The notes under the pieces were generated by a model, which worked only from the letters and a program-made list of their open reading frames with translations, was not told where the DNA came from and did not search any database. Of a stretch of DNA of 56,995 nt, positions 7,313-56,754 are shown one piece after another. Source of the stretch: a virus. Its lineage: Duplodnaviria; Caudoviricetes. The first letter of the stretch is position 1; each line of letters opens with the position of its first letter. The stretch covers positions 1-56,995 of the IMG/VR virus record IMGVR_UViG_3300035703_000115; one strand, given 5' to 3'. The position numbers and the translations under genes are program-made.

Positions 7313-8277
7313 GCGGTCTTTTGTGGAGCGCCCTCGGCGGCGCGATTGCCAACGGCAGCAACGCATTTGCCAACGCCTACATCCGCGAGGCCGAAGAAGA
7401 TCGGCGCCGCGCGGACGAGGAGCGGCGCGAGAAGCGTGCTGACGACCGCGACGAGGCCAAGTTCCAGCGTCGCAAAGATGCCGAAGAAGCCGAGCGGATA
7501 AAGCAGGCTGGCATCTACGACCGCGCTGAGAAGAACGCTCCTGCGCTTGGCGATGAGCGCCGCTTCGAGAAGTTCCGCAAGGACGCCCGGGATGCGGGCT
7601 ACGAGGCCGACGACGCCACCCTGCGAGAGCAGTTCGATAAGACCTACAACCAGAAGGTTGTTGCCGGCTCCGACCGCTACCTTGAGCGCTACAGCAAAGA
7701 GCGCGAAGACGTGCTTAATGAGGTCCGGCGCTTGGGCGGTAGCAGCGACACCATCAAGCAGGCCCAAGTCGCCTACGACACGGCGCGAAAGATTGAGTCC
7801 GATGATGCGCGTGCGGCACGAGAAGAGCGGCGACTCATTCAAGAGCGACAGCTTGCCGAGGATCGTGAAGACAACCGCGAGCGCCGGGCCGAGAGGCGCG
7901 ATGAGACGATTCGGCGCGGCCAGGACATCCAGCGCGATAGGGTCTACGGAGGCGGAAGTGGTGGCCGCGGCAGCGATGGAGGAAAGCCTCCGACGGGCGT
8001 TGACCTTGAGCGCAGCGCCAAGGCTGCCGAGAAGCGTCTTGCCCTTGAGTTGGGAGTCCCGCTCAACCGCGTGCAGGAAGAAGTCACCCGCAGGAAGAAG
8101 CGCGGGGACATGACTTCTGAGCAAGAAGAAGCCTACACCGACTACCAATCTGCCCTTCGTAAGTGGCGCGAGTTCAAGCCTGGTTCCGGTGGCTCGACAG
8201 ACTCCCCGCCAACCAAGCCTGCTGGCAGCAAAGACCGCCCACCGCTTTCATCCTTCCAACTCCCCACAAAGAACTGA
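7309..8277 (+). CDS. Putative internal virion protein (charged coiled coil)
   Basis: 322 aa, E/R/D-rich; immediately upstream of the giant gene. Confidence 0.55.
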   Translation: MSGLLWSALGGAIANGSNAFANAYIREAEEDRRRADEERREKRADDRDEAKFQRRKDAEEAERIKQAGIYDRAEKNAPALGDERRFEKFRKDARDAGYEADDATLREQFDKTYNQKVVAGSDRYLERYSKEREDVLNEVRRLGGSSDTIKQAQVAYDTARKIESDDARAAREERRLIQERQLAEDREDNRERRAERRDETIRRGQDIQRDRVYGGGSGGRGSDGGKPPTGVDLERSAKAAEKRLALELGVPLNRVQEEVTRRKKRGDMTSEQEEAYTDYQSALRKWREFKPGSGGSTDSPPTKPAGSKDRPPLSSFQLPTKN

Positions 8278-8289
8278 GACAGGGTCACC

Positions 8290-11200
8290 ATGCGCTTTGA
8301 TGTCAACGCCGCTCGCAAGGCTGGGTACACCGACGATGAGATTGCCGACTACCTTTCTGAGCAGCGCGGGTTTGACATTGGCTCGGCGCGGGAATCGGGC
8401 TATTCGTCTCGGGAGGTCTTGGACTTTCTGAGCAAGCCGGAGGTCAAAAAGCCGGCCGTCGCCAACACCCCGGCCTATGTCGAGGAGCCCATCAACTACG
8501 ACGATGCGGCAACCTCGATGGCGGGTACGCCTTCGCAATCAAACGGCGGCGGCGTCCTTCAGCGCATCGGCGCGGCGCTGCGGCCCGACCAAAATCGCAG
8601 CGTGCTTGAGGGGTACAAGCAGCCGGAGGCCGAGCGCCAAGCGGAGGTTGATCGTCGCCTGTCCTACGGTCAGGGTCCAATCAGCCAGAAGGTCGCGGCC
8701 GATGCTGACCGTGTTCGCAGTGCGCGTGGCACCAACGACCAGATCAAGTTCACCAGCCCGACCTATGAGAGCCGGGTGCGGGGGGTCGTTGACGCGATGG
8801 ACGAGCGCGGCGAGCGCTCTTTTGGCGACCTTGCCGCGCTTGGGCGTGATGGCGAGATTCAGCGGGCATTGACTCAGAGCAAGGCCGACGAGTTCCGCTC
8901 TGCCGGCGAGTGGGCCATCGACACCGCATCCAATGTGATGCAGGGCGCCGTGTCTCTGGCGCAGATGCCGGTCAATCTGATCGCGCCTGACGGCTCTCTG
9001 GCCGAGTCGCTGCGGCAGACCCAGAAGGAATTGCAGGCCGAGGAGTCTGATGTCCTCAAGGCCAGCCGTGAAGTCCTCAAGCAGCGGGTGATGAACGAGG
9101 AGGGCTTCTTCGGGCAATACGCCGCCACGGTCAAGCAACTGATCACAAACCCCACGCTCGCTATCTCTGAGGGCTTCAAGCAGTTGCCGATGTTCCTCGG
9201 GATCGTGGGCGCAGCCCGTGGTGGTGCGGCGGCGGGCGCTGCCGGCGTGGCCGCCGCAGGGCGTGTTGCTCCTACGGTTGCGCTGGCAGATGCGATTGGC
9301 GGCGGCGCTCTGACGGCGCGGGCCGCCGCTATCGGCAGCACTGTGGGCGGTGGCGCCGCAGCGGTGACGATGGCCGCGGGTGATGCGGCCGGTCAGACCT
9401 ACGAGGAACTGACCGATCCCCGGCGCACTCCGCGAGAAACCTGGGAGCAGAACCCAGACTATCAGCGCCTTGTGGCCGAGGGCAAGTCTCCGGATGAAGC
9501 GATCAATGAGTTGGCCGTTGCCAAGTCGCGCATGGCCGCGCTTGTGGCCGCGCCTCTTGGCATCTTGGGCTTCATGGGCGCAGAGGCGGCAGTCGCAGGC
9601 CGCGGTATTGTTCAGGCCGCAAGGGATGCGCTGACCTTCAAGGGTGCCGCAAAGTCTTTCGGCAAGGAAACGGTTGGTGAGCAGTTGGAGGAGGGCGGTA
9701 CACAGGCCGCATCCAACTTCGCCGTTTCTACGGTGAACCCAAACAAGTCAATCCTTGAAGGCGTGCCCGAGGCGATGGCACTGGCCGGCGTGACATCGAC
9801 GCCATTCGGCGCGATTGGTGCCTTGAGCAACTATCAGCAGGCGCGGGCTCAGTTGGACTCCGGACCTGATGTGGCGGCCCTCGTTAGCCGGGATGGTCAG
9901 ACCGCAATTGATGACCGCTTCGGCGACACCCTGCGCCCCGAGCGAGTGGCTGCCGAGCGCGAGCGCCTGGAGCGTATGCGCCGCCTGTCTGAGGCGCAGA
10001 GCGTGGATGAGGCGATTGAGTTGGCCAATGAGGTGGCCAATGCGCCGGTTGCGCCGCAGACGCCTGCTGCGCCCGCGGCGCCGGTAAACGCCGGGGATGA
10101 TCCGGTTCTGAGCAATGTGCTGACATCGCTCGGGGCACTGAGCAATCAACCAGGAGGCGTCAATGTCGGGGCATCAAATCAGCCTGCACCCACAGCTACA
10201 GGAGGCCCTGGAGTTGGGGGCGGTGACGTTCTCGGAAGCCTGGTTGCTGATGGACGAAATCCTGCTGCAGGACTGCGAGGTGGTGATGATGCCGGCGGAG
10301 TACCTAGTGTTAGTAGCCAAGGTGCAGTTGTGCTGGGCGGAGGTGCCGCCGGGGGTGGTCGTCCAGTAGTTCTCCAGAACCGCGACCGATCAACGGCGGC
10401 GTCCATCTCGCAGATGAACAGCATCGCGGCAGCACCCGACTATCTCAGGGCTGGCCCGAGCCGTGAGATGGTCACGGGTGCCCCGGTGGTTTTCGGGGAT
10501 GTGCCGGATTTTGCAGCGCTGGGGCGGCAGGAGACGGTTGTGGACGGGCGTGGCAATCGAGTTGCCGTGCAGTACGCCGTGGTGGATGCTGCCGATCTGA
10601 TCCCGTCCAACCGTGCGGATGGCACCCCGGTGTCTGAGTACGAGCAAGGCGCCGCCGGCAAACTGCGCGCGGTGGCCGGCAACGGCAGAACGGCTGGCCT
10701 GCAGGAGGCGTACAACCGCGGCACTGCGGGCGCCTATCAATCCGAGATGATGGCCGACTTGCCCAATCTCGGCGTTGACCCGGCTGCGGTGCAGTCGATG
10801 CAGCGTCCGGTCCTGGTACGGGTCATGTCGCAAGATGATGTGACACCCGACATGGGCGACCGCACGAACACGGCGGTGACGCAGAACTTGAGTCCTGTTG
10901 AGCAGGCGGCCAACGATGTGCGCCGAGTGGATGTTCGCGGGTTTGAGTTCACCGATGCGGGCGACCCGACACCGCAGACTGTTCGCTCGTTCGTGTTCTC
11001 TTTGCCTGAGTCCGAGCGCGGCAACTTGCTCAACGCTGACGGCACGCCGACGCGGCAGGCCGTTGACCGGCTCATGGGCGCCACATTCCGCGCCGCCTAT
11101 GGCAATGATGGGTTGGTGCAGTTGTACGCGCAGGCCACCGACCCGGATGCGCGGTCGGTGATCAACGCCGCGGCGATGGCGGCGGGCTCCATGTCCAGCC

Positions 11201-14200
11201 TGGTTGGGTCCGCCCCGGAGTTCGACATTCGAGGCGTGGTGTCGGATGCCATCGGGATGGCGGTCAATGCGTCCAGGCAGGGAGTTCGCCTCGCTGACTA
11301 TGCAGCCAACACCGATCTGACCACAGACGCTTATGCGGCTGACATTGCAAGGTTCCTGGGTGAGAATATCCGCTCACCCAAGAAGATGGCCGAGGGGCTG
11401 CGGGCGATGGCGAACTTTGCCGCGCAGCAGCAGCAGGCTCTGGTCAGCAACGCCACCAATGCCGGCCTGTTCGGGGATCAGCCCACGGCCAGCCGCCAGG
11501 AGATCATCAATGCCGTCTTCGGACAAGCCAACGGTCAACCCCAAGTCGCTGCTAGAAACGCCGCAGTGGCGCAGGATGGCGGTCAAGGTGCTCAACGGGC
11601 AGCAACCGACCCAGCAGGAGCAGGACGAGTTTCAGTCGATGGCGCTGCAGGAAGCCAAGCGGCGACTGGACGAAATGAGCAAGGCTCAGACCAGCAAGGA
11701 CTGACATCTCCCACGGTCGATCAGGTTCTGCAGCAGCAGGACCGTGCGGCCAATGAAGCGGAACTTGATCAGCGTGATCAGGTTCGACGCGAGAGCGAGG
11801 CGGGCGCCGATCAGTTCACGCTGCAGGCGCAGGATGGCCGGGTAGACAACACCGGCAGCCTGTTCTCAAACGACAGGGAGCAGCAGGACGAGGACTTCCT
11901 GCGGACCGTGTTCGGCGCCGAATCCGGCCAGGCCGGGCAGTCCAACTCTGGAGGCGGCACCACCAATTCCGCATCCCGCCTGCCGACCGTGGAGGGCGTG
12001 GGCTCTGTTGTGCAGATGAAGGTCGGGCAGACCTTCCAGATCCGTGACCAAGGTCAGGTTCACCAGGTTCGCGTGGTGGACTCCAAGTCATCGGGCGTTT
12101 CGTCCAGGGCTCTGGACATCATCGCCAAGGTGTTCGGCAAGCGTGTGGTGTTCGTGGACCCCGGCACCTTGGATGTCGATGGATTCGTGCGGCCTGACGA
12201 CAACCGCAACATCTACATCAGCGTGCGCTCCAGGATCAACCCGCTGGCCGTGCTTGGCCACGAGTTGACGCACCTGCTCAAGCGCGACAACCCGCAAGCC
12301 TACGCCGCCCTGGAGGCGGTGGTGATGCGCGAACTGCGCGAGGGTGCGGGCAAGAGCTTCTCTGCCTACTACGGACCCGGCGCCAATACCGAGGAATTGG
12401 TTTCCGACCTGGTGGGCAACCGCCTGATGGACAAGGACTTTCTGGTCAAGTTGTTCGCCGAGATCCAGGCTCAGAACCCGCAGGGCGCGCAGGGCATCAT
12501 CGCCAAGTTGGCCGCGATCATCAACCGGGTGGTTTCTCGGTTCATGGAGTTGTCCAAGCAGGCCGGCTTTGAGACGGACGCCTTGGTCAAGCGAGTGGCC
12601 CCGATCCAGGATGCGGTGCGGCAGGCTCTGAAGGAGTACGCGCTGCAGCAGGGTCTGCGGCCGGCGCAGATGGAGGTTGCGCTGGCGCGTGCGGGAGCGG
12701 GCTTGAGCATTGAGGGTGCGGCGCCCGTGCGGCGCAGTCCGGTTCGACCGGCCAGCGCGGATCGTGCAGACCTCAACCGTTCGCTCGGCGCGCAGCGCGT
12801 CTCTCCGCGACTGCCAACCGCAGTCAAGGCCACGGAAAATCCGATGGGCAACGACCGACTGCAGCCGGACCTAGATTCAGCCAAGCGGGACGCTGTTGTC
12901 TTCGCGCACAACATCAACCTGATGGCGCAGTACCCCAACTTCGTCAATGTTGGCGGCTCTGTGGACCAAATGGCCGAGGCCATGATCACGCAGATGAAGG
13001 ACAACCTGGTGTGGCTGCACAACCAGTGGCGTCCTGAACTGCGCGAGCGGTCCCGACTCTGGTATGTGGGTGGGAATCGAATCTCACACCGTATGGCTTC
13101 GCGGTTTAGGACCGAGCCCTGGCGTGTGGCTGCCGTGATTGCGGCGACCAGCCCTCAGAAGGACTGGTTCCAGAACGTCTCTTTGGCCGAGCGCATTTTG
13201 GAGGCGGTGGTCAACAACTCGCAGATGGCCTGGACGGCGCAGATGACCGAGACGGTCAACTCCCGCGACTGGGGCGGCAAGGAGTCGCGCGATCTGGGGT
13301 TCACGCCGCGCAATGAAATCTCTCGCCTGCAGGGCAAGACCTTGCGTGATCTGTACGACCCTCAGAATCCGCAGTCTCTTTTGGATATGGCGGTATGGGT
13401 TCGCGCTTGGGATGAAACGTACAACCCCCGCATGGCCAGGGTGATCTCGCCTGAAGGCAAGTTCATTGATGAGTTCGACTCGACCAAGGACGGTCGTCCA
13501 ATCGGCCTGCGTTGGCAGAGTTTTGCGACCATTGCCAAGACGCTGGACATCCTGACTGCGCCTGATCGGGCGACAGTGTCTTCCATGATCGGCTCGAACC
13601 ATAAGGTTCGCTCGTTCTACAACAACATCATCGCGCCGTTTGATGATGAGGACGTGACCATCGACACCCATGCCGTGGCCGCCGCGCTGATGCGACCACT
13701 GGGGTCGTCAGCCACCGAGGTGGCTCACAACTTTGGCACCAACGAAAAGGGGATGCCGGGGCCGAAGAACAGTGCCATCACGGGACTTTTCGGCACCTAC
13801 CCGATCTACGCTGAAGCGTATCGCCGGGCTGCCCGCGAGGTTGGGGTGCTTCCTCGCGAGATGCAGTCCATCACTTGGGAGGCGGTGCGCGGCCTGTTCC
13901 GTCCAGAGCAGAAGAATGAGAGAATCAAGGGCGAGGCAGACCGCATTTGGCGCGAAGTCTCTGAGGGAGAACTGGATGTCAACGAAGCGCGGCAGCAAAT
14001 CTCTGGCCTGGTTGGTGGCATCCAAGACCCCGCCTGGGTCCGATCCCCTGCTGGAAGTAATGAAGCAGCGCGGGATTCCTCTTACGCAGGAGGAGTACCT
14101 GAAGATGGCGTACCCGGAAGGGGTGCCCAACCCGGTGCCGCCCGAGGTGATGGCCGAGATGCCAGCGCAACTCCGGCAAGCCTGAGTCGCGGGCGACGAG

Positions 14201-17200
14201 TCGCGCCCAACCCTGACTCCGCAAACTTCAAGCGTTGGAGCGGTAACGCCCCGCTGATCACCTCTGCAGCAGCGGTTGACCATGTCTTCAAGACGGGTCA
14301 GAAGGTGGTGCTTGAGGGCTTCCACGGTACTGGCCGGGGTGATCGTGTTGGCACGGTGTTCCAGCGCAAGCGCGCCACCTCCGGCCCGATGGCGTTCTTC
14401 ACCAGTTCGCCGGTGCTTGCGAGTTCATACGCGCAGGGGAAGCCAGACACCAGCCGCGCACTGGAGGACAACCCGTTTGAGAGTTGGTTCAAGTTCAAAG
14501 GGAAGGGAATGCGAACGGCGGTCAACCTCGACCGCGCGTGGTATTTCCTTGATCAAGAGAGCAAGGCCAAGATCGCCAAGCGGATGCCTGACATTCGCAC
14601 GGACGATGACGGCAACATCGTCTACGAAGAGGGCGGCGGCGACCTCGGCAACTACGACTGGGAACTGAAGCAAACCAAGTCGGCCTACCTGCGTGAGGGT
14701 AACCCGCTGAAGGCGGCCGTTGAATCTTGGTTGAGCAGCGGCTCCATCTACGGCGACGAGGGCAGTTTCCGCCAGGTGCTGCGCTTGGCCGGCTTCCCGA
14801 TGGATGCGCTAGATTACGACAACCCGCAGGAGACGTACCCGTTCGTCTACAAGGTCTATGTCTCCATGCTCAACCCGCTGGTGACCAGCGACATTCCGAA
14901 GGAAGTGGACGATGCCTTGCGCGCGGCTGCCGCAAAGGACCGCAGCAAGGCCAAGTCACAGTTCGGCGTGGACTCATGGGACAAGAACACCCGCACGCTC
15001 AAGGAGTGGGTGGGCGAGTACCTGAACCCATCCAATGGGGATAACCGCTACGTTTGGACGAGCATCCCTGATAAGGTGACCGAGGTTTTCAAGAGCCTGG
15101 GTTATGACGGGATCATCGACTACTCGGGGAAGAACGGTTCCACCGAAGTCGCGCCGGTCTACATCCCGTTTGAAGAGGGTCAGGTCAAGAGCGCCCTGAG
15201 CAACAGCGGCGAGTTTGACCGCAGCAAGAAGGACATTCAGGCCAGCAGATCGCGTGAGCGCCTACTGTCAATGCCTGCGGTGCCGGTGAGTCCGCTACCC
15301 GATGGTATGGCTCTTGGTGATCTTCGAGTCTTGGCTAGTGAGCGGTACAAGGCCGCTGCCAAACTTGGCCCCGTCAGGATGAAGGATGACCGCGCCGTGC
15401 TGTTGACATCGGTGGGGATGAAGAAGTCGCGCAGCCACAGCGCCGACAAGCGGGTGCTGGACTTGATGGGCTCAATTCGCGAGGTGCTTGGCGCGGCCGA
15501 GCCCGTGGCTTCGATTCCGCATCAGAAGGAAAACCCAGGCGACTCAATCCGCGCGTGGCACTACTACGGCGCGAAGGTGGATATCGATGGCGAGGAGGCG
15601 TTTGCCAAACTCGTTGTGCGCGAGTCCGTCAACGGCGAGATTTACTACGACACCGACCTGTCTGGCGTGGAAGATATCAGCGGTCGTGCTGGTGACGCTG
15701 CCCGATCCAAAACCGGGGCGGCAGCCGTTTCCGCTGACAAAAGAACTCTAGCCGATCTTTTGGGCGCGGGCAATCTTGGGAGTGAGGTTGAGTTGAGCCG
15801 CGGCCGCTCCGAAATCGGTTTCTACTCCGCCCTGTCTGAGGGCATTGACGGCATCAAGGTCAGTGCTGCGCCTGCAGCCGGATGGCGCGATGCCATCAAG
15901 GGCCTGGTGAACAAGGGTGCGGCCAAGGCCGATGAGGTGGAGTGGTCGGGGGTCAATGACTTCCTGAGCCTGCAGGCCGGCAAGGTGACCAAGCAGCAGG
16001 TGCTGGACTACCTGGGCGCCAATGGGGTGCGGGTAGAGGAGGTGGTGCTGGGCGGCAACACCGCATTGACGCCAAGCGAGCAGACCGAGATGGACGAACT
16101 GCTTGACTTGCGCCGGCGCTACGAAGAGGGAGAGGCCGGAGTCTACGAGGCGGCCGACGCCGACAGGTTGGAAGAACTGATGCGCAAGCGCATGCAGGAC
16201 GCCGAAGACGTGGCGCTGCCAAAGTACGGCCAGTACACCCTCCCCGGCGGCGAGAACTACCGCGAGGTGCTGCTGACGCTGCCAGATAGGCGCGAGCTGC
16301 CAGAGGGCTACAAGGTCAAGAATGACCCCGACTATGGGTGGATGGTTGAGAGCCCCGAGGGCGGCATGGTGTGGCAGGGCAGAACGCGAGAGGAGGCTGT
16401 CGCCAATGCCAGAAGCAGCCCGACTGTGCTGGGCCAGAAGCAGCCGGACAAGTCTTACCGTTCCTCACACTGGGACCAGCCCAACGTCATCGCCCACATC
16501 CGCGTCAACGACCGCACCGATGCCGATGGCAAGCGCGTGCTGTTCGTGGAGGAGATTCAATCTGACTGGGGCCAGGAGGGGAAGAAGAAGGGTTTTGCCG
16601 AGAAGTCCCCGAGGCCGGTCCGCGTGTTTGACCGGCGAACTGGGGCGGAGGTTGCACGGTTCAATACCGGGCGCGAGGCTGAGGAATTCATCGCGTCGGA
16701 AGATCCGCGCATGGACAGGCTTGAGTACGAGGAGGACCAGGGTCGCAACTCCGGCATCCCATCCGCACCCTACGTCACCAAGACCGAAGGCTGGCTGAAC
16801 CTCTCCCTCAAGCGCGTGATGATCATGGCCGCAGAGGGAGGCTATGACAAGGTTGCGTTCGTCAATGGCGAGCAGTCTGCTGATCGGTATGACCTTTCAA
16901 AGCAGATCAGCAAGGTTCGCTACGAGGACAGGAGCATCCAAGGCTCTGGCAAGCCCACGTTGGATGGTTCGCCTGAGAGCGGGGAGTTCTATGCCTATGA
17001 CCTTGAAGGGAATCTACAGATTAACAGGCGCCTCAATGACCCAGTCAAGGAGTTGCCTGACCTAATCGGTAAACAACTGGCTGAACGTCTTTTGAATGCT
17101 GAGCCGACAGAAGCTCGCGGCTATGGCGGTGGCTTCCGTCGCCGAGAGGTTTCTGGCGTTGACCTCAAAGTCGGCGGCGAAGGCATGAAGACCTTCTACG

Positions 17201-20200
17201 ACACCATCGTGCCCACGGCGCTGAAGAAGCTGCTGCCCAAGGTGGGTGGTGGGCAGATGAGCAATGTTGATGTTGTCTTGCAAGAAGCATACGAGCGCGA
17301 TCCCGAAGGCTTCCCGGCCAAGATTGCCGCTCAACCCGGCTTTGATGTCACCCCCGAGATGGTGCAGAAGGTATCCGATGGGGTGCCGCTGTTCAGCCGC
17401 GGCCGCAACTCTCAGATCGACACGCCTGAGTTCAAGCGGTGGTTTGGGGATTGGGAGGCTGTTATGCACCGCGTCTTCCTAGACGGCCCCCCGGTCGCCT
17501 CAGTAGCTGGCGACACATTCAGCTCTGATGGAGTGCCGCTAACGGAGAAGGTGCCCAAGTGGTACGCGGAGCGCGGCTTCTCTACGGTGGATGTGGCCGG
17601 TATCGGGCCAGTCTCGCTAGACGAGAAGGCCGTAAAAAACAGCCTTTCGCACGGTATCGGGAGGGATAAGGCCGCTGCGTTTGCGGTGGTCCCCGATGTT
17701 CTTCTAAAGGGCCGCATCATCCACCGTGAGCGGCATGATGGTGGCCGCGACACCGACATGGTGTATCACATAGCCGCGCCGGTCAGGATTGGTGGCCGCG
17801 ACTTTATCGCTGACGTATTGATTCGCGAGGACAGCAACATCCGCCGCATGTACGTCCACGAAGTCGTGCTCAAAGAAAAACTCCAGCAGTCCGCCTTCAA
17901 GACCAGTGCAGATGCAGTCGAAACTGGGGTGCGTGCTGGAGCGGGTGCTGGAGCGATGCGTAGTGTGCTTCAGAGAGTTTTCACCGTCAACCCCGCAACC
18001 GTCTCCAAAGTCGTCGATGCTGATGGCAAGCCGATGGAGGTGTACAACGGCTCGCCGGACGGGATTGAGGCGTTTGAAGAAGGCCGAGACGCCTACTTCA
18101 CCAGCAGCCGCCGATTGGCCGAGGAGTACACCGACCGCCGAGGTATGTGGTTGTCCAAGGGCGCGAACCCGACTGTCACCTCTGCTTACCTGTCAATTCA
18201 GAACCCGTTGGTGATTGACGCGCTTGGCAAGCGCAACGACAACATCCCGGTGCCGTGGCAGGAGTGGAGCCCGAAGGTATTCGGCAGGCTTCCAGATGGT
18301 GCAGTGAGCGTTGAGGCTGCGGCCAAGCGTGCCCGTGAGATGGGTTACGACGGTCTGATTGTTCGCAACGTGGTGGACAGCGCCACGACCGATGGCAAGA
18401 CCAAGGGCGACGTGTTCGTGGCCTTCAGCCCCGAGCAGATCAGGGAATCGACCGGCGACAGCAGCGACATCACGAAGTCCTCTGGCCGCGCCACCAGTGA
18501 CCTGGACCTGATCGCCAAGCGCGACGAGATGGGCCGATTGAAGTTCGGCCTGGGCAGCAAGGCTTACAGCCTCGTGGCCGAGGTGGCCAACAACGTGCTG
18601 GATCGGGTTCGCATGAAGCCCATCTCCGAAGACCTCGCTCGGGCCATGCTCAAGATGAAGGTCGCCATCGAGCAGGCGCAGGAGCGCACGGTGGATGTGG
18701 CCAAGTCCATGAGCGAACTGGACCCCGCCGAGCGGCAGATGATCTCGGATGTGATTGAGCAGGAACTGACCGCAGGCGTGGTGCCCCCAACTCGTGTGCT
18801 GCAGATCGCGGCCACCCTGCAGGGCATCATGTCCGAGCAGTCCAAGGAACTGATCGACCTGGGCATGCTGCGCCAGGAAGATGCTGACCGATGGGATGGA
18901 CGCTACATCCCGCGCTTCTACGAGCAGACTCTTGGCAAGGAAGCCTCGGCCTGGATGAAGGCGGTCAAGCAGTTGTTCACTCGCCCGCGCGCGATGATGG
19001 GCATCAAGGGCAACAACCTGAAGTCTCGCGGTCTGTGGGAGACGATCCCTGCGGACGAGTTGGCATCGTGGACGGCCAATGGTTGGGAGGCTCGCGACCC
19101 CGCGTTCGATCCGGCCACCTCAACCGAGGTCCGCATCTGGCGCGACTACACCCGCCCCGAGCGGGATGGCATGGGCGAGATTCGGGACGCCATGTTCCGC
19201 TTCGTCATGGGCTACCAGAAGGCCCAGCGCGACATCGCCTTGGGCAAGATGTACCGGCACATCAACCAAACGATGGCTAGCAGCGTCGAGAAGGATGGAT
19301 TCGTTCGGGTGCCGGACTCCAGCATCGATGGCGTGGACGTGCCGTCCTACGGCGAGCTGGCCGGCAAGTGGGTTCCGCGCGAGGTGCTGGATCACCTGAG
19401 CGCATTCGACTCCACGCAGCGCAACGCCCTGACCCGCTTCTACCAAAAGGCTCTTTCCTACTGGAAGGAGGGCAAGGTGGTGCTCAACCCGGTGAGCCAT
19501 GCCAACAACATCCTGTCCAACCTGACGATGGCCCACTTCGCCGGCGTGTCGTACTGGGACGGCGGCAAGTACATGGCCGCCCTGCGTGACATGGTCAAGG
19601 GCTCGCCCATGCTGGACGAGGCCAAGGACGCGGGCCTGTTCGTGGGATCGTTCAACCAGGCCGAGATCGCCAAGGCGCTGCCCGAGGAGTTGAAACTCCT
19701 GGCCGGCAAGTCCGAGAGCAAGGCCGGGCAGGCGGTGGACTTCGCCTTCACCGCGATGACGTTCTTCTTGCGAAAGCCGATGAACATGGCCTACGAGGTG
19801 GAGGACCAGTACTTCCGGTACCTGCTGTACCGCGACGCACGACAGCGCGGCATGGAGCCGGAGGACGCGGTGCGCCACTCGCAGCGGCACATCTTCACCT
19901 ACGACGACCTGCCGCAGGGCGCGCGCGTGGTGCGCGACACGGCGCTGCCATTCTTCGCCTACACCTACAAGGTGATCCCGGTCCTGGCCAAGACGGCGCT
20001 GGAGTACCCGCATCGGTACGCGATGCCAGCGGCCATCCTGTACACCCTCAACGCCCTTGGATTCGCGATGGCCGCCGGCGATGAGGACGATGACTGGATG
20101 GAGATCATCCGCAAGTACGCCACCGACGCCGACTTCCGCAAGAAGGTCAGCGACCTGGAGGGCCAAGAGCGCGAGAACCTGCCGCCGTGGATGCAGGGCG

Positions 20201-20859
20201 CAAGCGCCTCTCTTGGAACGCCCAAGGCGATCCGCCTGGGCGAGGATGACAAGACCGGTCTGCCGGTGTACCTGGACGTGAGCAAGATCTTCCCCGGCGG
20301 CGATCTGTTGGATGTCACATCGAACGCCGGCGGCCTGCCGTGGCTGCAGCCGCTCACGCCTTCAAGTCCTGTGCTCAACGCGGCCGCGGCGCTGTTCTTC
20401 AACCGCGATCCGTTCTACGGCAAGGACCTGGTGGACAAGAACGACACCCCCGCAGAGGCCGCAGAGAAGCGCGCCGAATGGGCGTGGAAGCAGTTCTCGC
20501 CGGCCATCACGGTCTACAACTACCACTGGGACCGCGGCATGAACGTCTTGGCCAACGCCACCGGAACGGACATCCTGGGCTACACCGGGCGCGGCAAGGA
20601 CGGCATCCCGGTAGATGCGATGTACGCGGCCATGCAGACCTTCGGCATCAAGGCTCGGCCCATTGATCTGGAGAAGTCGGCCGACATCAACGCCAACAAG
20701 GAGAAGTCCATCATCCGCTCCATTGAGGCAGAAATTTCGCAACTCAAGCGCCTGGAGGCCAAGGGCGCAATGACCTCGGAGAAGGCTCAAAAGCAGATCG
20801 ACCTTGAGAACGAGAAGATCCAGCGCATGCGCGACAAGCAAACTGAGTCAGTTGATTGA
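8290..20859 (+). CDS. Giant polyvalent protein (probably virion-injected): ddrB-like ParB domain, zincin peptidase-like domain, TIDTHA domain, two ART-PolyVal-like domains, two BECR/LPD3-like RNase domains, EEIQSD domain, helical C-terminal region
   Basis: 4189 aa uninterrupted. Motifs: LQNRDR/YAVVDAADL/VAGNGR (~10372-11480); HELTH (~12259); VTIDTHA (~13654); FHGT..FFTS..GYDGII (~14320-15120); WHYYG..KLVVRE..YYD (~15555-15650); EEIQSDW (~16549); FKRWFG..YNGS..YFT..GYDGLI (~17430-18360) interrupted by YHIAAPV..ADVLIRED..MYVHEV. Confidence 0.85.
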   Translation: MRFDVNAARKAGYTDDEIADYLSEQRGFDIGSARESGYSSREVLDFLSKPEVKKPAVANTPAYVEEPINYDDAATSMAGTPSQSNGGGVLQRIGAALRPDQNRSVLEGYKQPEAERQAEVDRRLSYGQGPISQKVAADADRVRSARGTNDQIKFTSPTYESRVRGVVDAMDERGERSFGDLAALGRDGEIQRALTQSKADEFRSAGEWAIDTASNVMQGAVSLAQMPVNLIAPDGSLAESLRQTQKELQAEESDVLKASREVLKQRVMNEEGFFGQYAATVKQLITNPTLAISEGFKQLPMFLGIVGAARGGAAAGAAGVAAAGRVAPTVALADAIGGGALTARAAAIGSTVGGGAAAVTMAAGDAAGQTYEELTDPRRTPRETWEQNPDYQRLVAEGKSPDEAINELAVAKSRMAALVAAPLGILGFMGAEAAVAGRGIVQAARDALTFKGAAKSFGKETVGEQLEEGGTQAASNFAVSTVNPNKSILEGVPEAMALAGVTSTPFGAIGALSNYQQARAQLDSGPDVAALVSRDGQTAIDDRFGDTLRPERVAAERERLERMRRLSEAQSVDEAIELANEVANAPVAPQTPAAPAAPVNAGDDPVLSNVLTSLGALSNQPGGVNVGASNQPAPTATGGPGVGGGDVLGSLVADGRNPAAGLRGGDDAGGVPSVSSQGAVVLGGGAAGGGRPVVLQNRDRSTAASISQMNSIAAAPDYLRAGPSREMVTGAPVVFGDVPDFAALGRQETVVDGRGNRVAVQYAVVDAADLIPSNRADGTPVSEYEQGAAGKLRAVAGNGRTAGLQEAYNRGTAGAYQSEMMADLPNLGVDPAAVQSMQRPVLVRVMSQDDVTPDMGDRTNTAVTQNLSPVEQAANDVRRVDVRGFEFTDAGDPTPQTVRSFVFSLPESERGNLLNADGTPTRQAVDRLMGATFRAAYGNDGLVQLYAQATDPDARSVINAAAMAAGSMSSLVGSAPEFDIRGVVSDAIGMAVNASRQGVRLADYAANTDLTTDAYAADIARFLGENIRSPKKMAEGLRAMANFAAQQQQALVSNATNAGLFGDQPTASRQEIINAVFGQANGQPQVAARNAAVAQDGGQGAQRAATDPAGAGRVSVDGAAGSQAATGRNEQGSDQQGLTSPTVDQVLQQQDRAANEAELDQRDQVRRESEAGADQFTLQAQDGRVDNTGSLFSNDREQQDEDFLRTVFGAESGQAGQSNSGGGTTNSASRLPTVEGVGSVVQMKVGQTFQIRDQGQVHQVRVVDSKSSGVSSRALDIIAKVFGKRVVFVDPGTLDVDGFVRPDDNRNIYISVRSRINPLAVLGHELTHLLKRDNPQAYAALEAVVMRELREGAGKSFSAYYGPGANTEELVSDLVGNRLMDKDFLVKLFAEIQAQNPQGAQGIIAKLAAIINRVVSRFMELSKQAGFETDALVKRVAPIQDAVRQALKEYALQQGLRPAQMEVALARAGAGLSIEGAAPVRRSPVRPASADRADLNRSLGAQRVSPRLPTAVKATENPMGNDRLQPDLDSAKRDAVVFAHNINLMAQYPNFVNVGGSVDQMAEAMITQMKDNLVWLHNQWRPELRERSRLWYVGGNRISHRMASRFRTEPWRVAAVIAATSPQKDWFQNVSLAERILEAVVNNSQMAWTAQMTETVNSRDWGGKESRDLGFTPRNEISRLQGKTLRDLYDPQNPQSLLDMAVWVRAWDETYNPRMARVISPEGKFIDEFDSTKDGRPIGLRWQSFATIAKTLDILTAPDRATVSSMIGSNHKVRSFYNNIIAPFDDEDVTIDTHAVAAALMRPLGSSATEVAHNFGTNEKGMPGPKNSAITGLFGTYPIYAEAYRRAAREVGVLPREMQSITWEAVRGLFRPEQKNERIKGEADRIWREVSEGELDVNEARQQISGLVGGIQDPAWVRSPAGSNEAARDSSYAGGVPEDGVPGRGAQPGAARGDGRDASATPASLSRGRRVAPNPDSANFKRWSGNAPLITSAAAVDHVFKTGQKVVLEGFHGTGRGDRVGTVFQRKRATSGPMAFFTSSPVLASSYAQGKPDTSRALEDNPFESWFKFKGKGMRTAVNLDRAWYFLDQESKAKIAKRMPDIRTDDDGNIVYEEGGGDLGNYDWELKQTKSAYLREGNPLKAAVESWLSSGSIYGDEGSFRQVLRLAGFPMDALDYDNPQETYPFVYKVYVSMLNPLVTSDIPKEVDDALRAAAAKDRSKAKSQFGVDSWDKNTRTLKEWVGEYLNPSNGDNRYVWTSIPDKVTEVFKSLGYDGIIDYSGKNGSTEVAPVYIPFEEGQVKSALSNSGEFDRSKKDIQASRSRERLLSMPAVPVSPLPDGMALGDLRVLASERYKAAAKLGPVRMKDDRAVLLTSVGMKKSRSHSADKRVLDLMGSIREVLGAAEPVASIPHQKENPGDSIRAWHYYGAKVDIDGEEAFAKLVVRESVNGEIYYDTDLSGVEDISGRAGDAARSKTGAAAVSADKRTLADLLGAGNLGSEVELSRGRSEIGFYSALSEGIDGIKVSAAPAAGWRDAIKGLVNKGAAKADEVEWSGVNDFLSLQAGKVTKQQVLDYLGANGVRVEEVVLGGNTALTPSEQTEMDELLDLRRRYEEGEAGVYEAADADRLEELMRKRMQDAEDVALPKYGQYTLPGGENYREVLLTLPDRRELPEGYKVKNDPDYGWMVESPEGGMVWQGRTREEAVANARSSPTVLGQKQPDKSYRSSHWDQPNVIAHIRVNDRTDADGKRVLFVEEIQSDWGQEGKKKGFAEKSPRPVRVFDRRTGAEVARFNTGREAEEFIASEDPRMDRLEYEEDQGRNSGIPSAPYVTKTEGWLNLSLKRVMIMAAEGGYDKVAFVNGEQSADRYDLSKQISKVRYEDRSIQGSGKPTLDGSPESGEFYAYDLEGNLQINRRLNDPVKELPDLIGKQLAERLLNAEPTEARGYGGGFRRREVSGVDLKVGGEGMKTFYDTIVPTALKKLLPKVGGGQMSNVDVVLQEAYERDPEGFPAKIAAQPGFDVTPEMVQKVSDGVPLFSRGRNSQIDTPEFKRWFGDWEAVMHRVFLDGPPVASVAGDTFSSDGVPLTEKVPKWYAERGFSTVDVAGIGPVSLDEKAVKNSLSHGIGRDKAAAFAVVPDVLLKGRIIHRERHDGGRDTDMVYHIAAPVRIGGRDFIADVLIREDSNIRRMYVHEVVLKEKLQQSAFKTSADAVETGVRAGAGAGAMRSVLQRVFTVNPATVSKVVDADGKPMEVYNGSPDGIEAFEEGRDAYFTSSRRLAEEYTDRRGMWLSKGANPTVTSAYLSIQNPLVIDALGKRNDNIPVPWQEWSPKVFGRLPDGAVSVEAAAKRAREMGYDGLIVRNVVDSATTDGKTKGDVFVAFSPEQIRESTGDSSDITKSSGRATSDLDLIAKRDEMGRLKFGLGSKAYSLVAEVANNVLDRVRMKPISEDLARAMLKMKVAIEQAQERTVDVAKSMSELDPAERQMISDVIEQELTAGVVPPTRVLQIAATLQGIMSEQSKELIDLGMLRQEDADRWDGRYIPRFYEQTLGKEASAWMKAVKQLFTRPRAMMGIKGNNLKSRGLWETIPADELASWTANGWEARDPAFDPATSTEVRIWRDYTRPERDGMGEIRDAMFRFVMGYQKAQRDIALGKMYRHINQTMASSVEKDGFVRVPDSSIDGVDVPSYGELAGKWVPREVLDHLSAFDSTQRNALTRFYQKALSYWKEGKVVLNPVSHANNILSNLTMAHFAGVSYWDGGKYMAALRDMVKGSPMLDEAKDAGLFVGSFNQAEIAKALPEELKLLAGKSESKAGQAVDFAFTAMTFFLRKPMNMAYEVEDQYFRYLLYRDARQRGMEPEDAVRHSQRHIFTYDDLPQGARVVRDTALPFFAYTYKVIPVLAKTALEYPHRYAMPAAILYTLNALGFAMAAGDEDDDWMEIIRKYATDADFRKKVSDLEGQERENLPPWMQGASASLGTPKAIRLGEDDKTGLPVYLDVSKIFPGGDLLDVTSNAGGLPWLQPLTPSSPVLNAAAALFFNRDPFYGKDLVDKNDTPAEAAEKRAEWAWKQFSPAITVYNYHWDRGMNVLANATGTDILGYTGRGKDGIPVDAMYAAMQTFGIKARPIDLEKSADINANKEKSIIRSIEAEISQLKRLEAKGAMTSEKAQKQIDLENEKIQRMRDKQTESVD
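10163..10369 (+). CDS. Nested small ORF 1 (68 aa) in the +1 frame of the giant gene
   Basis: AGGAGG 5 nt before the ATG; nearly all codons end in G/C in this frame, while the host frame becomes Gly-rich filler with A/T-ending codons. Confidence 0.7.
   Translation: MSGHQISLHPQLQEALELGAVTFSEAWLLMDEILLQDCEVVMMPAEYLVLVAKVQLCWAEVPPGVVVQ
11510..11704 (+). CDS. Nested small ORF 2 (64 aa) in the +1 frame of the giant gene
   Basis: AGGAG 7 nt before the ATG; helical-looking product MPSSDKP...EAKRRLDEMSKAQTSKD; begins just after the ParB-like domain. Confidence 0.6.
   Translation: MPSSDKPTVNPKSLLETPQWRRMAVKVLNGQQPTQQEQDEFQSMALQEAKRRLDEMSKAQTSKD
13976..14185 (+). CDS. Nested small ORF 3 (69 aa) in the +1 frame of the giant gene
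   Basis: GAGGGAG 6 nt before the ATG; product includes DPLLEVMKQRGIPLTQEEYLKMAYPEG; its stop coincides with the SRGR module junction. Confidence 0.7.
   Translation: MSTKRGSKSLAWLVASKTPPGSDPLLEVMKQRGIPLTQEEYLKMAYPEGVPNPVPPEVMAEMPAQLRQA
15668..15738 (-). ncRNA. Candidate antisense structured sRNA 1, downstream of RNase-like domain 1
   Basis: Closing stem GUCAGCGG/CCGCUGAU, inner GCUGCC/GGCAGC, and CCCGG-UUUUGGA-UCGGG; G-U pairs form only on the minus strand; the 5' end lies 7 nt from a predicted -10. Confidence 0.55.
15745..15773 (-). promoter_or_regulatory. Antisense sigma70-like promoter TTGCCC-N17-TAGAGT
   Basis: Reverse complements of gggcaa (15768-15773) and actcta (15745-15750), 17-bp spacer. 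Confidence 0.55.
17872..17954 (-). ncRNA. Candidate antisense structured sRNA 2, downstream of RNase-like domain 2
   Basis: Closing stem GCUCCAGCA/UGCUGGAGU, inner CCGC/GCGG and CCAG/CUGG, CAGU-UUCG-ACUG tetraloop, 3' UUUUUCUUU tail. Confidence 0.6.
17962..17990 (-). promoter_or_regulatory. Antisense sigma70-like promoter TTGACG-N17-CACACT
   Basis: Reverse complements of cgtcaa (17985-17990) and agtgtg (17962-17967), 17-bp spacer. Confidence 0.5.
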
Positions 20860-20891
20860 ACAGAACCGGAATCCCCTGTCAATAGGGTGAA

Positions 20892-20919
20892 TTGACACTT
20901 CCTGCAAAAACGCTATCAT
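20892..20919 (+). promoter_or_regulatory. Sigma70 promoter TTGACA-N16-TATCAT, overlapped by a 10-bp inverted repeat
   Basis: Near-consensus boxes; IR AAACGCTATC (20908-20917) / GATAGCGTTT (20930-20939). Confidence 0.7.
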
Positions 20920-20949
20920 TTGTACTGTCGATAGCGTTTCTTCTCAATG

Positions 20950-20990
20950 GCCCTGCGGAATTACAAGTTCTGGCAGGGCTTTTGTCTTTC
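20950..20990 (+). terminator. Intrinsic terminator between the promoter and the moron ORF
   Basis: GCCCTGC...GCAGGGC stem followed by TTTTGTCTTT. Confidence 0.7.
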
Positions 20991-21002
20991 AGGAGGTGAA
21001 CC

Positions 21003-55618: not shown

Positions 55619-56754
55619 GCACAGAGTATTTCATCCCAACTGGCAACCCGCAGCCCAACTCGCCCGGCGCGTCCAACCAGATTCGCTCTGAGTTCGCGCT
55701 TGTCCAGGCTGGCTTTGCCAAGCTGCCCGCCATGATGGCCAACGGCAACAAGGCCGTGGTCGTCAACTCGGCCGGCACCGCGCTGACCACGACGACGACG
55801 TTCACCGGCTTCACGCTGAACACCCCGACGATCAATGGCGGCACGGGCACGTTCAACAGCCCGACGCTGACAACGCCCACCATCACGGGCGGCACGATCA
55901 ACGGCGCGGTGATCGGCGCGACCACGCCTGCTGCGGCGACGTTCACAACCGCGACGGCCACCTCGTTCGTCGGCAACCTGACGGGCAACGCCTCCACGGC
56001 AACGACTGCGCTCACGGCCAACACGGCCAACAGTGCAACGACTGCGACCACGGCAACCAACGTCAATGGCGGGACGGTCAACGCCACAACCGGGACGTTC
56101 TCGGGCACGGTCACCGCGCCGAACTTTGTGGGCGTCATCTCGGACGCAACCAATGCTCAGTTTGCTGTCACGCAGCCCCTTGCTGACAACAGCACGCGAA
56201 TCGCCACAACGGCCTTCGTCATGCAGATCGCCTTCCAGAACGCTCTGCCGGATGTGGACAACACGGTGGCCGGGTATGTGCCGACGAACGACGGCACCAA
56301 CTCATTCTGGTCGCCGCTCAAGACCATCGGAGGTCAGACCCTATTGGGCACTGGCGAAGTGGCTGGAGTTGTCACAGCAACCGGCACCGATACGCTGACC
56401 GACAAGACCATCGAGGATGGCATCTTCTCCAACGGATACCGGGAAGAGACATTCACCGCCAACAGCGGCACCGCTTTCACGGTGGACATCCTCAATGGAT
56501 CGCTTCAGGTCATCACACTCACTGGCAATGTGATGTTCACCTTCCCCACGCCCACGGCAGGGCGCGGTCTGGTGATCCTGCTCAAGCAAGACGCCACGGG
56601 CGGCAGGACGGCCACATGGCCGATGACGGTGAAGTGGCCCGGAGGTACTGCGCCGACGATTACGTCAGCAGCGAACAAGCTGGACAAGTTCGCGTTTGTC
56701 GCGGATGGAATCAACTGGTACGGCACCAATGCCGGCCAGAACTACACGGTGTAA
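55615..56754 (+). CDS. Tail fibre-like protein
   Basis: Thr-rich repeats, STRIATTAFV, LKQDATGGRTATWP..VKW.GGTAP. Confidence 0.7.
   Translation: MSTEYFIPTGNPQPNSPGASNQIRSEFALVQAGFAKLPAMMANGNKAVVVNSAGTALTTTTTFTGFTLNTPTINGGTGTFNSPTLTTPTITGGTINGAVIGATTPAAATFTTATATSFVGNLTGNASTATTALTANTANSATTATTATNVNGGTVNATTGTFSGTVTAPNFVGVISDATNAQFAVTQPLADNSTRIATTAFVMQIAFQNALPDVDNTVAGYVPTNDGTNSFWSPLKTIGGQTLLGTGEVAGVVTATGTDTLTDKTIEDGIFSNGYREETFTANSGTAFTVDILNGSLQVITLTGNVMFTFPTPTAGRGLVILLKQDATGGRTATWPMTVKWPGGTAPTITSAANKLDKFAFVADGINWYGTNAGQNYTV

Follow-up and report, generated by a model that had tools for sequence, protein, structure and literature searches.

The stretch of DNA analysed here (the window) is an entire IMG/VR virus record of 56,995 base pairs (bp), IMGVR_UViG_3300035703_000115, with an estimated completeness of 97%. 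It carries genes for a CI-like repressor, a DnaB-like helicase, a large terminase and a portal and represents a tailed phage, for which lysogeny is plausible because of the CI-like repressor. A giant open reading frame (ORF) of this phage encodes a polyvalent protein with two copies of the Pfam domain LPD3 and two ART-PolyVal domains (Table 1). The subject of this analysis is a small element at positions 17872-17990, on the strand opposite the giant gene and in the linker DNA between the second LPD3 and the second ART-PolyVal domain, where comparison with homologues points to a conserved promoter and a structured RNA.

An original prediction, made from the sequence alone, had placed at this site an antisense promoter that drives a structured, self-terminating RNA of about 80 nucleotides (nt), directly behind the last strand of the domain (MYVHEVVL). 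All of the motifs that it named are present, the helices that it described were reproduced by the minimum free energy (MFE) fold, and the element does lie immediately past the MYVHEVVL codons. The sequence GGUCUUGAA around the internal loop of the hairpin is near-invariant, even in short distant versions of the element, and also codes for the conserved peptide F-K-T.

Table 1. Coordinates of the giant gene, its domains and the elements on the opposite strand
Feature	Position	Strand	Remarks
Giant polyvalent-protein ORF	8290..20859	+	4189 amino acids (aa); Pfam: ddrB-ParB, DUF7178, LPD3 x2, ART-PolyVal x2
First LPD3 domain	15337..15648	+	aa 2350-2453; Pfam PF18798
Second LPD3 domain	17545..17853	+	aa 3086-3188; Pfam PF18798; last strand MYVHEVVL reaches 17871 (M = 17848)
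Second ART-PolyVal domain	18016..18465	+	aa 3243-3392; downstream of the element, same module
-35-like hexamer TTGACG	17985..17990	-	TTGAC(A/G) in most relatives
-10-like hexamer CACACT	17962..17967	-	17 nt past the -35; 3/6 match; uses rare Ser codon AGT
Candidate transcription start (A17957 or G17954)	17954..17957	-	inferred; 5-8 nt past the -10, at the hairpin base
Rod-like hairpin	17880..17954	-	75 nt, 25 pairs in 5 helices
Closing stem, 9 bp	GCUCCAGCA 17954..17946 with UGCUGGAGU 17888..17880	-	
Apical stem-loop CAGU-UUCG-ACUG	17926-17923 with 17918-17915; UUCG loop 17922-17919	-	
Unpaired 7-nt internal loop UCUUGAA	17896..17902	-	within GGUCUUGAA
U-tract UUUUUCUUU	17872..17880	-	immediately past the closing stem; antisense of rare codons AAA-GAA-AAA
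Sister promoter-like TTGCCC-N17-TAGAGT	15745..15773	-	-10 from rare codons Thr ACT and Leu CTA
Sister hairpin	15675..15739	-	65 nt; 9-bp closing stem UGUCAGCGG/CCGCUGAUA 5 nt past the -10; tail UCUUCC

Taken alone, the site does not go beyond chance, with the exception of its T-run. The element fold has a z of -1.82, 12 of 200 shuffles folding equally well, and its MFE is equalled or bettered by 440 of the 2498 sliding minus-strand windows of the gene. The promoter scores 8/12, a match that the minus strand of the gene offers 24 times, or 8 times if A2 and T6 are required. The T-run, in contrast, stands alone: nowhere else on either strand of the 12.5-kilobase (kb) gene do nine consecutive letters include 8 T or more. 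An Rfam 15 scan of 8000-21000 at E ≤ 1 returned solely a chance small nucleolar RNA match (20845-20921, E 0.98), and a DNA similarity search against GenBank phages and PLSDB plasmids gave zero matches. The most stable antisense folds of the gene are found on the minus strand at 10000-10131 (MFE down to -46.5 per 82 nt), in a Gly/Ala/Pro-rich low-complexity region near aa 570-615, and are probably compositional.

Other features that the same DNA might hold were considered and rejected. For a 115-aa minus-strand ORF at 17412..17759, 9 of the 19 loci examined, the window among them, have a different or interrupted open frame, and the ORF is not retained as an antisense protein gene. By eye, there is no in-frame slippery heptamer for programmed frameshifting and no GTTRRRY core for an integron attC-like site, and the ATG after GGAG that could serve as an internal start is Ile in most relatives.

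Conservation of the hairpin, its strand and its promoter

Protein-pattern scans provided 80 viral loci, to which an alignment query added 8 genome, 8 viral and 6 metagenome loci, the genome loci coming from a Lysobacter metagenome-assembled genome, a betaproteobacterium, Pleomorphochaeta, Methylococcaceae and Thiothrix. Most of the giant proteins share 10-30% identity with that of the window; LPD3 and the next 45 residues reach 50-73%. The linker peptide, KEKLQQSAFKT...GAxRSVLxRxxxVNP, is itself conserved, and constraint on the protein alone therefore had to be excluded as the source of any conserved structure. The MFE structure of the window sequence only was paired in 150 of 150 cells in the window and five relatives (L002-L006), with four compensated pairs; in the same six-sequence test none of 500 shuffles reached this value and slid controls were 17-47% paired, although, the sequences being related, these and the later shuffle counts are not probabilities. 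Of the 75 nt, 13 differ between the window and L002; eight of these belong to the four compensated pairs and the other five to unpaired positions, with no pair lost. The amino acid is changed by five of the eight compensating substitutions and left as it is by three, the pattern that would be expected from a nucleic-acid constraint acting over a tolerant linker.

All 12 same-length homologues retain 24-25 of the 25 pairs, and the helices vary in sequence among them, the apical stem being CAGU/ACUG, CAGC/GCUG, CAGG/CCUG or CGGC/GCCG and the second helices differing too. RNAalifold, run on a plain MAFFT alignment of 13 sequences, returned the same 25 pairs, 11 of them compensated, with 95.1% of the cells paired, a level that none of 500 shuffles reached. 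A covariance model built from these 13 aligned sequences recovered held-out members (L086-L089, L102, L103, L022 and L011-19) at the homologous spot and on the minus strand, with scores of 37-38 bits in Methylococcaceae, 29-34 bits in Thiothrix and 21-25 bits in L102, L103, L022 and L011-19. The resulting alignment of 20 sequences, which was fitted to the model, has 95.7% of its cells paired, with 21 of the 25 pairs covarying and 89 cells changed on both sides as against 25 in shuffles.

An internal control was provided by 297 sliding segments of 83 nt, taken on both strands from the gap-free and equally conserved block 17470-17997 and scored for pair survival in L002, L004, L005 and L006. Complete (100%) pair retention was found solely in minus-strand segments over the element, and the 220 segments from the LPD3 core averaged 54.5%, with a maximum of 75%. 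Nucleotide identity in the element region is 80%, as against 63% in the LPD3 core, which makes it the most conserved DNA of these divergent giant genes.

The strand of the folded molecule could be read from the kinds of pairs. On the minus strand the cells comprise 402 Watson-Crick pairs, 48 G.U, 7 A.C and 13 others, and the plus-strand mirror retains 20-24 of the 25 pairs in the 12 homologues (85% versus 100% in the internal control). Because G.U outnumbers A.C and the plus-strand mirror retains fewer pairs, the folded molecule has minus-strand polarity. Where an alignment row has Glu at the apical loop, as seven do, the codon is always GAA, the source of the UUC in a UUCG or UUCC loop. The original prediction had proposed covariation analysis as a check; compensated pairs were found and the structure is kept in the homologues. 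Judged by this comparison the site does exceed chance, and a single-stranded structure of the minus strand is very likely under selection.

The promoter was analysed in the 20 members by taking the best -35/-10 pair that ends 5-14 nt before the stem. A match of 8-10/12 with a spacer of exactly 17, lying 6-9 nt before the stem base and possessing A2 and T6, was found in 17 of the 20, each score being reached at a frequency of ≤0.02 when 300 antisense positions were drawn at random from the same locus. The three members without such a match are L103, L102 and L022, the last of which has, by eye, TTGTAA-17-TATACT barely outside the scanned range. Strength is traded between the two boxes, TTGACG being found with CACACT or GACACT, TTGGCG with TATAGT or TATGCT, and TTGCCT with TAAAAT, and in L011 the boxes (TTGACA-17-TAATAT) are shifted by one codon along the peptide.

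Codon choice within the element runs against the usage of the gene. In the window gene AAA accounts for 14 of 188 Lys codons (7%), GAA for 62 of 268 Glu codons and AGT for 21 of 283 Ser codons; the elements of relatives likewise contain rare codons, such as ATA in L094 and L097 (7-8% of Ile) and, in L011, ATA (6%) and TTA (2%). The comparison shows that selection at the nucleotide level, working against codon bias, maintains the promoter hexamers and the U-tract. The central proposal of the original prediction, a short structured RNA driven from an antisense promoter, is strongly supported by the covariation, the strand-specific G.U pairs, the conservation of the promoter and the rare codons, and it is likely that the conserved promoter transcribes the structure.

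Recurrence behind LPD3 domains and exchange of the module

Both LPD3 domains of the gene score above the PF18798 gathering cut-off of 27 bits (50.2 bits for copy 1 and 38.1 bits for copy 2), and they share 25% identity (BLASTP E 0.83). The proposal that the same layout recurs behind both copies, and nowhere else in the gene, held up: of the eight minus-strand promoter-like sites, only those at 17990 and 15773, each located behind an LPD3 copy, have a 9-bp closing stem 5-7 nt further on, with one long hairpin inside it. The sister hairpin has a fold z of -2.19, and the codons that form its -10 make up 19 of 188 Thr codons (ACT) and 11 of 293 Leu codons (CTA). Within the window the covariance model found no second copy, its next best hit (13.3 bits, E 0.057) not being at copy 1, and because it misses copy 1 the two copies share a layout and not a detectable RNA homology. 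The sole relative found for copy 1 is a near-identical phage in which the hairpin is identical, so that the case for copy 1 is one of layout and codon use.

Outside the gene, 15 distant LPD3-like loci of 22-35% identity were examined. Seven have a linker promoter match that is reached by ≤5% of random windows, with an eighth at 5.5%, and four matches score 10-11/12, one of them in DNA of 73% GC. Examples are TTGACA-17-TAGAAT (the 73% GC locus) and TTGACA-17-TATATT, in elements whose sequence is unrelated to that of the window. At most of the promoter-bearing loci a long hairpin starts within a few nt, in many cases followed by a U-rich tail; the other 7 of the 15 showed nothing convincing. L049, L051, L021 and L023 have antisense sigma-70 boxes of 10-11/12 in their linkers, followed by long hairpins, and their elements may be separate RNA subfamilies.

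A cultured phage carries the element as well. In Pseudomonas phage H66 (L107), a Hollowayvirus, it lies in gp60 (NC_042342.1, about 55955-56120), scores 30.2 bits and consists of TTGCGG-16-TACACT and a hairpin with the tail UAUUCUUUU, and no ART domain follows. The gp60 product is a virion protein verified by mass spectrometry, and 32 of the 34 matched phage records are Pseudomonas phages. In every case seen the element stands directly past LPD3, with ART after it (copy 2), before it (copy 1) or absent downstream (H66), and these comparisons show that it travels with the LPD3 module across distant phages.

The nearest relative of the window, phage G001 (L105/L106), matches it at 96% identity as far as 15817 and at 90% identity from 18466 onward. 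Between these boundaries (15817/15818 and 18465/18466) an unrelated 1.1-kb segment replaces the 2.65-kb block 15818-18465, and the element is absent there. The block holds a 530-aa module without known family and then LPD3, the RNA and ART. As G001 matches both flanks but has a different insert between them, the LPD3-RNA-ART block is an exchangeable module.

A short S-[RS]-G-R motif recurs at the module borders of the giant protein, as LSRGRRV, LSRGRSE, FSRGRNS and KSSGRAT (14185-14196, 15796-15807, 17395-17406 and 18478-18489), and FSRSG occupies a comparable module-border place in H66. The break points with G001 adjoin S-R-G-R motifs, which may be processing or recombination junctions. No Pfam family was assigned to the 529-aa module at 15820-17406, which separates the two LPD3-containing modules; its sole match is a faint one to DUF1028 (E 0.16).

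The original prediction had also called the LPD3 domains RNase-like (ribonuclease-like), and this is not established, since Pfam holds LPD3 as a domain of unknown function and the fold matches have Z ≤5.1 only. An AlphaFold model of LPD3 built with 21 sequences (predicted local distance difference test, pLDDT, 79.8) gave a confident alpha/beta domain ending in four long strands, which is predicted to be followed by a disordered stretch at aa 3200-3218 (pLDDT below 50) and then a helix. The core of the RNA is encoded in this predicted disordered stretch. The residues H, K and Y-x-H-E are invariant in LPD3. Foldseek gave no match to the model at E ≤ 0.001 and a PDB profile search with LPD3 gave 0 matches. 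VIA-align returned Z scores of 3.5-5.1, a range that it rates as possibly a mere common arrangement, with CdiA-CT (4.8), colicin D (4.0), RelE (3.9) and MqsR (3.8) chains among unrelated folds and 7m5f_C as the best (5.1). The resemblance of the modelled LPD3 to RNase toxins is thus a hint and not a match.

In the sections consulted, Iyer et al. 2017 (PMC5512222) lists the functions of LPD domains as elusive and does not use the terms 'antisense', 'small RNA' or 'noncoding'; its supplementary alignments, which lay outside this scope, may describe the LPD3 tail. Literature searches listed no prior description of the element and no relevant transcriptome of H66/F116.

A candidate antisense RNA and its alternatives

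The reading that best fits these comparisons is that the element belongs to a new family of cis-antisense small RNAs (sRNAs) travelling with the LPD3 module. Its gene would be nested antisense within the polyvalent-protein gene, in DNA that codes for the disordered linker past LPD3. Host sigma-70 RNA polymerase would start at TTGACG-N17-CACACT and make an RNA of about 80 nt, the 5' end of which would form the base of the 75-nt rod-like hairpin, and in the window phage the 9-bp closing stem together with UUUUUCUUU would end the transcript. The RNA would then pair in cis with the giant messenger RNA (mRNA), leading to double-strand cleavage and less translation. In this manner it would restrain expression of the LPD3/ART effector modules that is leaky or comes at the wrong time, be it in a lysogen or early after infection, much as lambda OOP or type I antitoxin RNAs act. 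That the RNA would be fully complementary to the mRNA which it overlaps follows by construction, and the promoter on the opposite strand is supported by the comparison. As a whole, we give such a cis-antisense brake on the giant effector gene a probability of roughly 45% and put it forward tentatively.

Several observations weigh against it. Besides the kinship of the aligned sequences and the fitting of the larger alignment mentioned above, the linker peptide (FKT ... RS[VI]L ... VN) is conserved, so that the protein accounts for part of the nucleotide conservation, and the codons of invariant residues are not clearly more alike than in the LPD3 core. The -10 of the window is weak (3/6), and a consensus scan, which needed at least 4/6 per hexamer for a promoter, listed neither promoter nor terminator. 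Self-termination, as originally proposed, is plausible in the window, where a GC-rich closing stem is followed by a U-tract as in an intrinsic terminator; the hairpin, however, is not compact, the closing stem enclosing an interior of 56 nt and not the 3-8 nt loop of a terminator. A U-tract (at least 6 U of 9) is present in 12 of the 20 members and lacking in 8, and self-termination is therefore not a family-wide rule. On balance, the RNA of the window phage probably does end at its U-tract, which would give about 80 nt. The UUCG-type loop is a stable tetraloop and not a typical kissing loop, and suits pure cis-antisense pairing less. Finally, two wastewater runs labelled RNA-Seq consist of contigs that are probably DNA and carry no strand or end information, and are uninformative on expression. 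Contigs from one wastewater study match the window exactly at 17493-17709, 17508-17762 and 17763-17908, at a depth of 2-4; the module or the phage itself occurs in a wastewater-type habitat.

Some of the same facts would be explained if the RNA partnered the LPD3 encoded by its own DNA, as an antidote of the type III kind, a cofactor or a substrate, the two forming one mobile two-part module. The position directly past LPD3 whatever the place of ART, the recurrence behind distant LPD3 relatives with unrelated sequence and the exchange of the whole LPD3-RNA-ART block as a unit with respect to the nearest relative phage are all in keeping with this, as are the invariant H, K and Y-x-H-E residues, the faint fold matches to RNase toxins and the UUCG-capped stable rod, which resembles a protein-bound scaffold more than a kissing antisense RNA. 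However, binding or cleavage of RNA by LPD3 is unsupported, given fold matches of Z ≤5.1 and empty Foldseek and PDB profile searches. Known type III antitoxin RNAs are same-strand tandem repeats, whereas a single antisense copy is present here, and the RNA sequence is not kept between distant LPD3 subfamilies. We thus regard such a partnership as unlikely, if worth keeping in view.

The near-invariance of the unpaired GGUCUUGAA, down to the short distant versions, raises a further alternative, in which the RNA acts in trans on host transcripts or competing phages and the overlap with the gene is a convenient hiding place. It could work by way of its invariant unpaired UCUUGAA loop, or it could block the polyvalent genes of related phages entering the cell by antisense pairing. 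A U-tail after a GC stem matches the usual end of an Hfq-type sRNA, and the identity of 80% in the element region as against 63% in the LPD3 core is in favour as well. Yet the loop also codes for the conserved F-K-T, so that its invariance needs no RNA function, and the invariant loop is absent in H66. Action in trans by either route therefore seems improbable to us.

It is more doubtful still that there is no discrete antisense RNA, and that selection acts on the hairpin in single-stranded DNA or within the sense mRNA, where it would serve as a recombination or priming site at module junctions or as a translational pause between domains, with the promoter boxes as by-products of RS[VI]L...VN. 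The element does lie near recombining junctions (15817/15818 and 18465/18466 with respect to the nearest relative), the boxes coincide with conserved residues, and the plus-strand mirror still retains 20-24 of the 25 pairs. Against a structure in the sense mRNA, however, stands the excess of 48 G.U over 7 A.C on the minus strand. The promoter boxes use rare codons, their 17-nt spacing is kept despite the one-codon shift relative to the peptide, the strength of the -35 is traded against that of the -10, and boxes of 10-11/12 occur in distant relatives with different peptides, at up to 73% GC; these features weigh against this alternative because a DNA or sense-RNA element needs none of them. 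A chance origin, in which a GC-rich Gly/Ala linker folds fortuitously beside a promoter-like match, would agree with the unremarkable single-sequence statistics and is contradicted by all of the comparative results, including the covariation and the internal control, and we consider it barely credible.

Known systems compared and significance

Small RNAs with which the candidate antisense RNA may be compared include lambda OOP and P22 sar, the type I antitoxins Sok, SymR and RalA, ToxIN, and the CopA, RNA I and ctRNA regulators. It is like OOP and sar in form, these being RNAs of about 70-80 nt that have their own host-type promoter, lie on the strand opposite a phage protein gene, end in a hairpin and U-run and are fully complementary to the mRNA that they overlap. 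Unlike OOP and sar, which are found at a gene end in a regulatory region, the element sits deep in a 12.5-kb virion-effector gene, in a domain linker, and occurs twice in one gene. It is also a single long rod with its 5' end at the stem base, its covarying structure is kept in very distant phages, and neither a sequence relation nor one in Rfam was found.

Type I antitoxin RNAs are constitutive, and Sok, SymR and RalA resemble the element in size and in being small antisense RNAs over the mRNA of a potentially harmful protein. Here, however, the 'toxin' would be a candidate domain within a 4189-aa polyprotein and not a small separate gene, and the overlap is internal and not at a ribosome-binding site. 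If LPD3 has an RNase fold, ToxIN offers the parallel of a structured RNA genetically tied to an RNase-like protein. ToxI-type RNAs are same-strand tandem repeats upstream of the toxin that are processed by it; the element, in contrast, is one antisense copy without repeats, inside the gene and with its own promoter, and RNase activity of LPD3 is unsupported. CopA, RNA I and the ctRNAs share with it a stable antisense stem-loop with interior bulges, their own sigma-70 promoter and an immediate U-tail. These RNAs, however, control replication genes or primers via loop-loop kissing, whereas the element overlaps a structural or effector gene and has a UUCG-type loop.

Polyvalent proteins are thought to be the first weapons that a phage delivers into the cell. 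A conserved antisense RNA gene in the LPD3 linker would, if true, provide the first functional handle on LPD3 and add a layer of RNA to a system that has hitherto been analysed as protein domains only. One and the same sequence would then do three things at once, coding for a disordered linker in the protein, providing a promoter and specifying a structured RNA, an overlap of a kind that is missed by gene-centred annotation and by intergenic RNA screens alike. It is further conceivable, though unlikely, that LPD3 makes up one mobile module with the hairpin RNA that its linker DNA encodes in antisense, an effector carrying its own RNA antidote or cofactor; were this so, such modules would be shuffled as units among the giant injected proteins of phages, with several copies per gene possible. 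Since cultured phages of Pseudomonas aeruginosa from the H66/F116 group carry the element, the proposed RNA gene can be put to a direct test.

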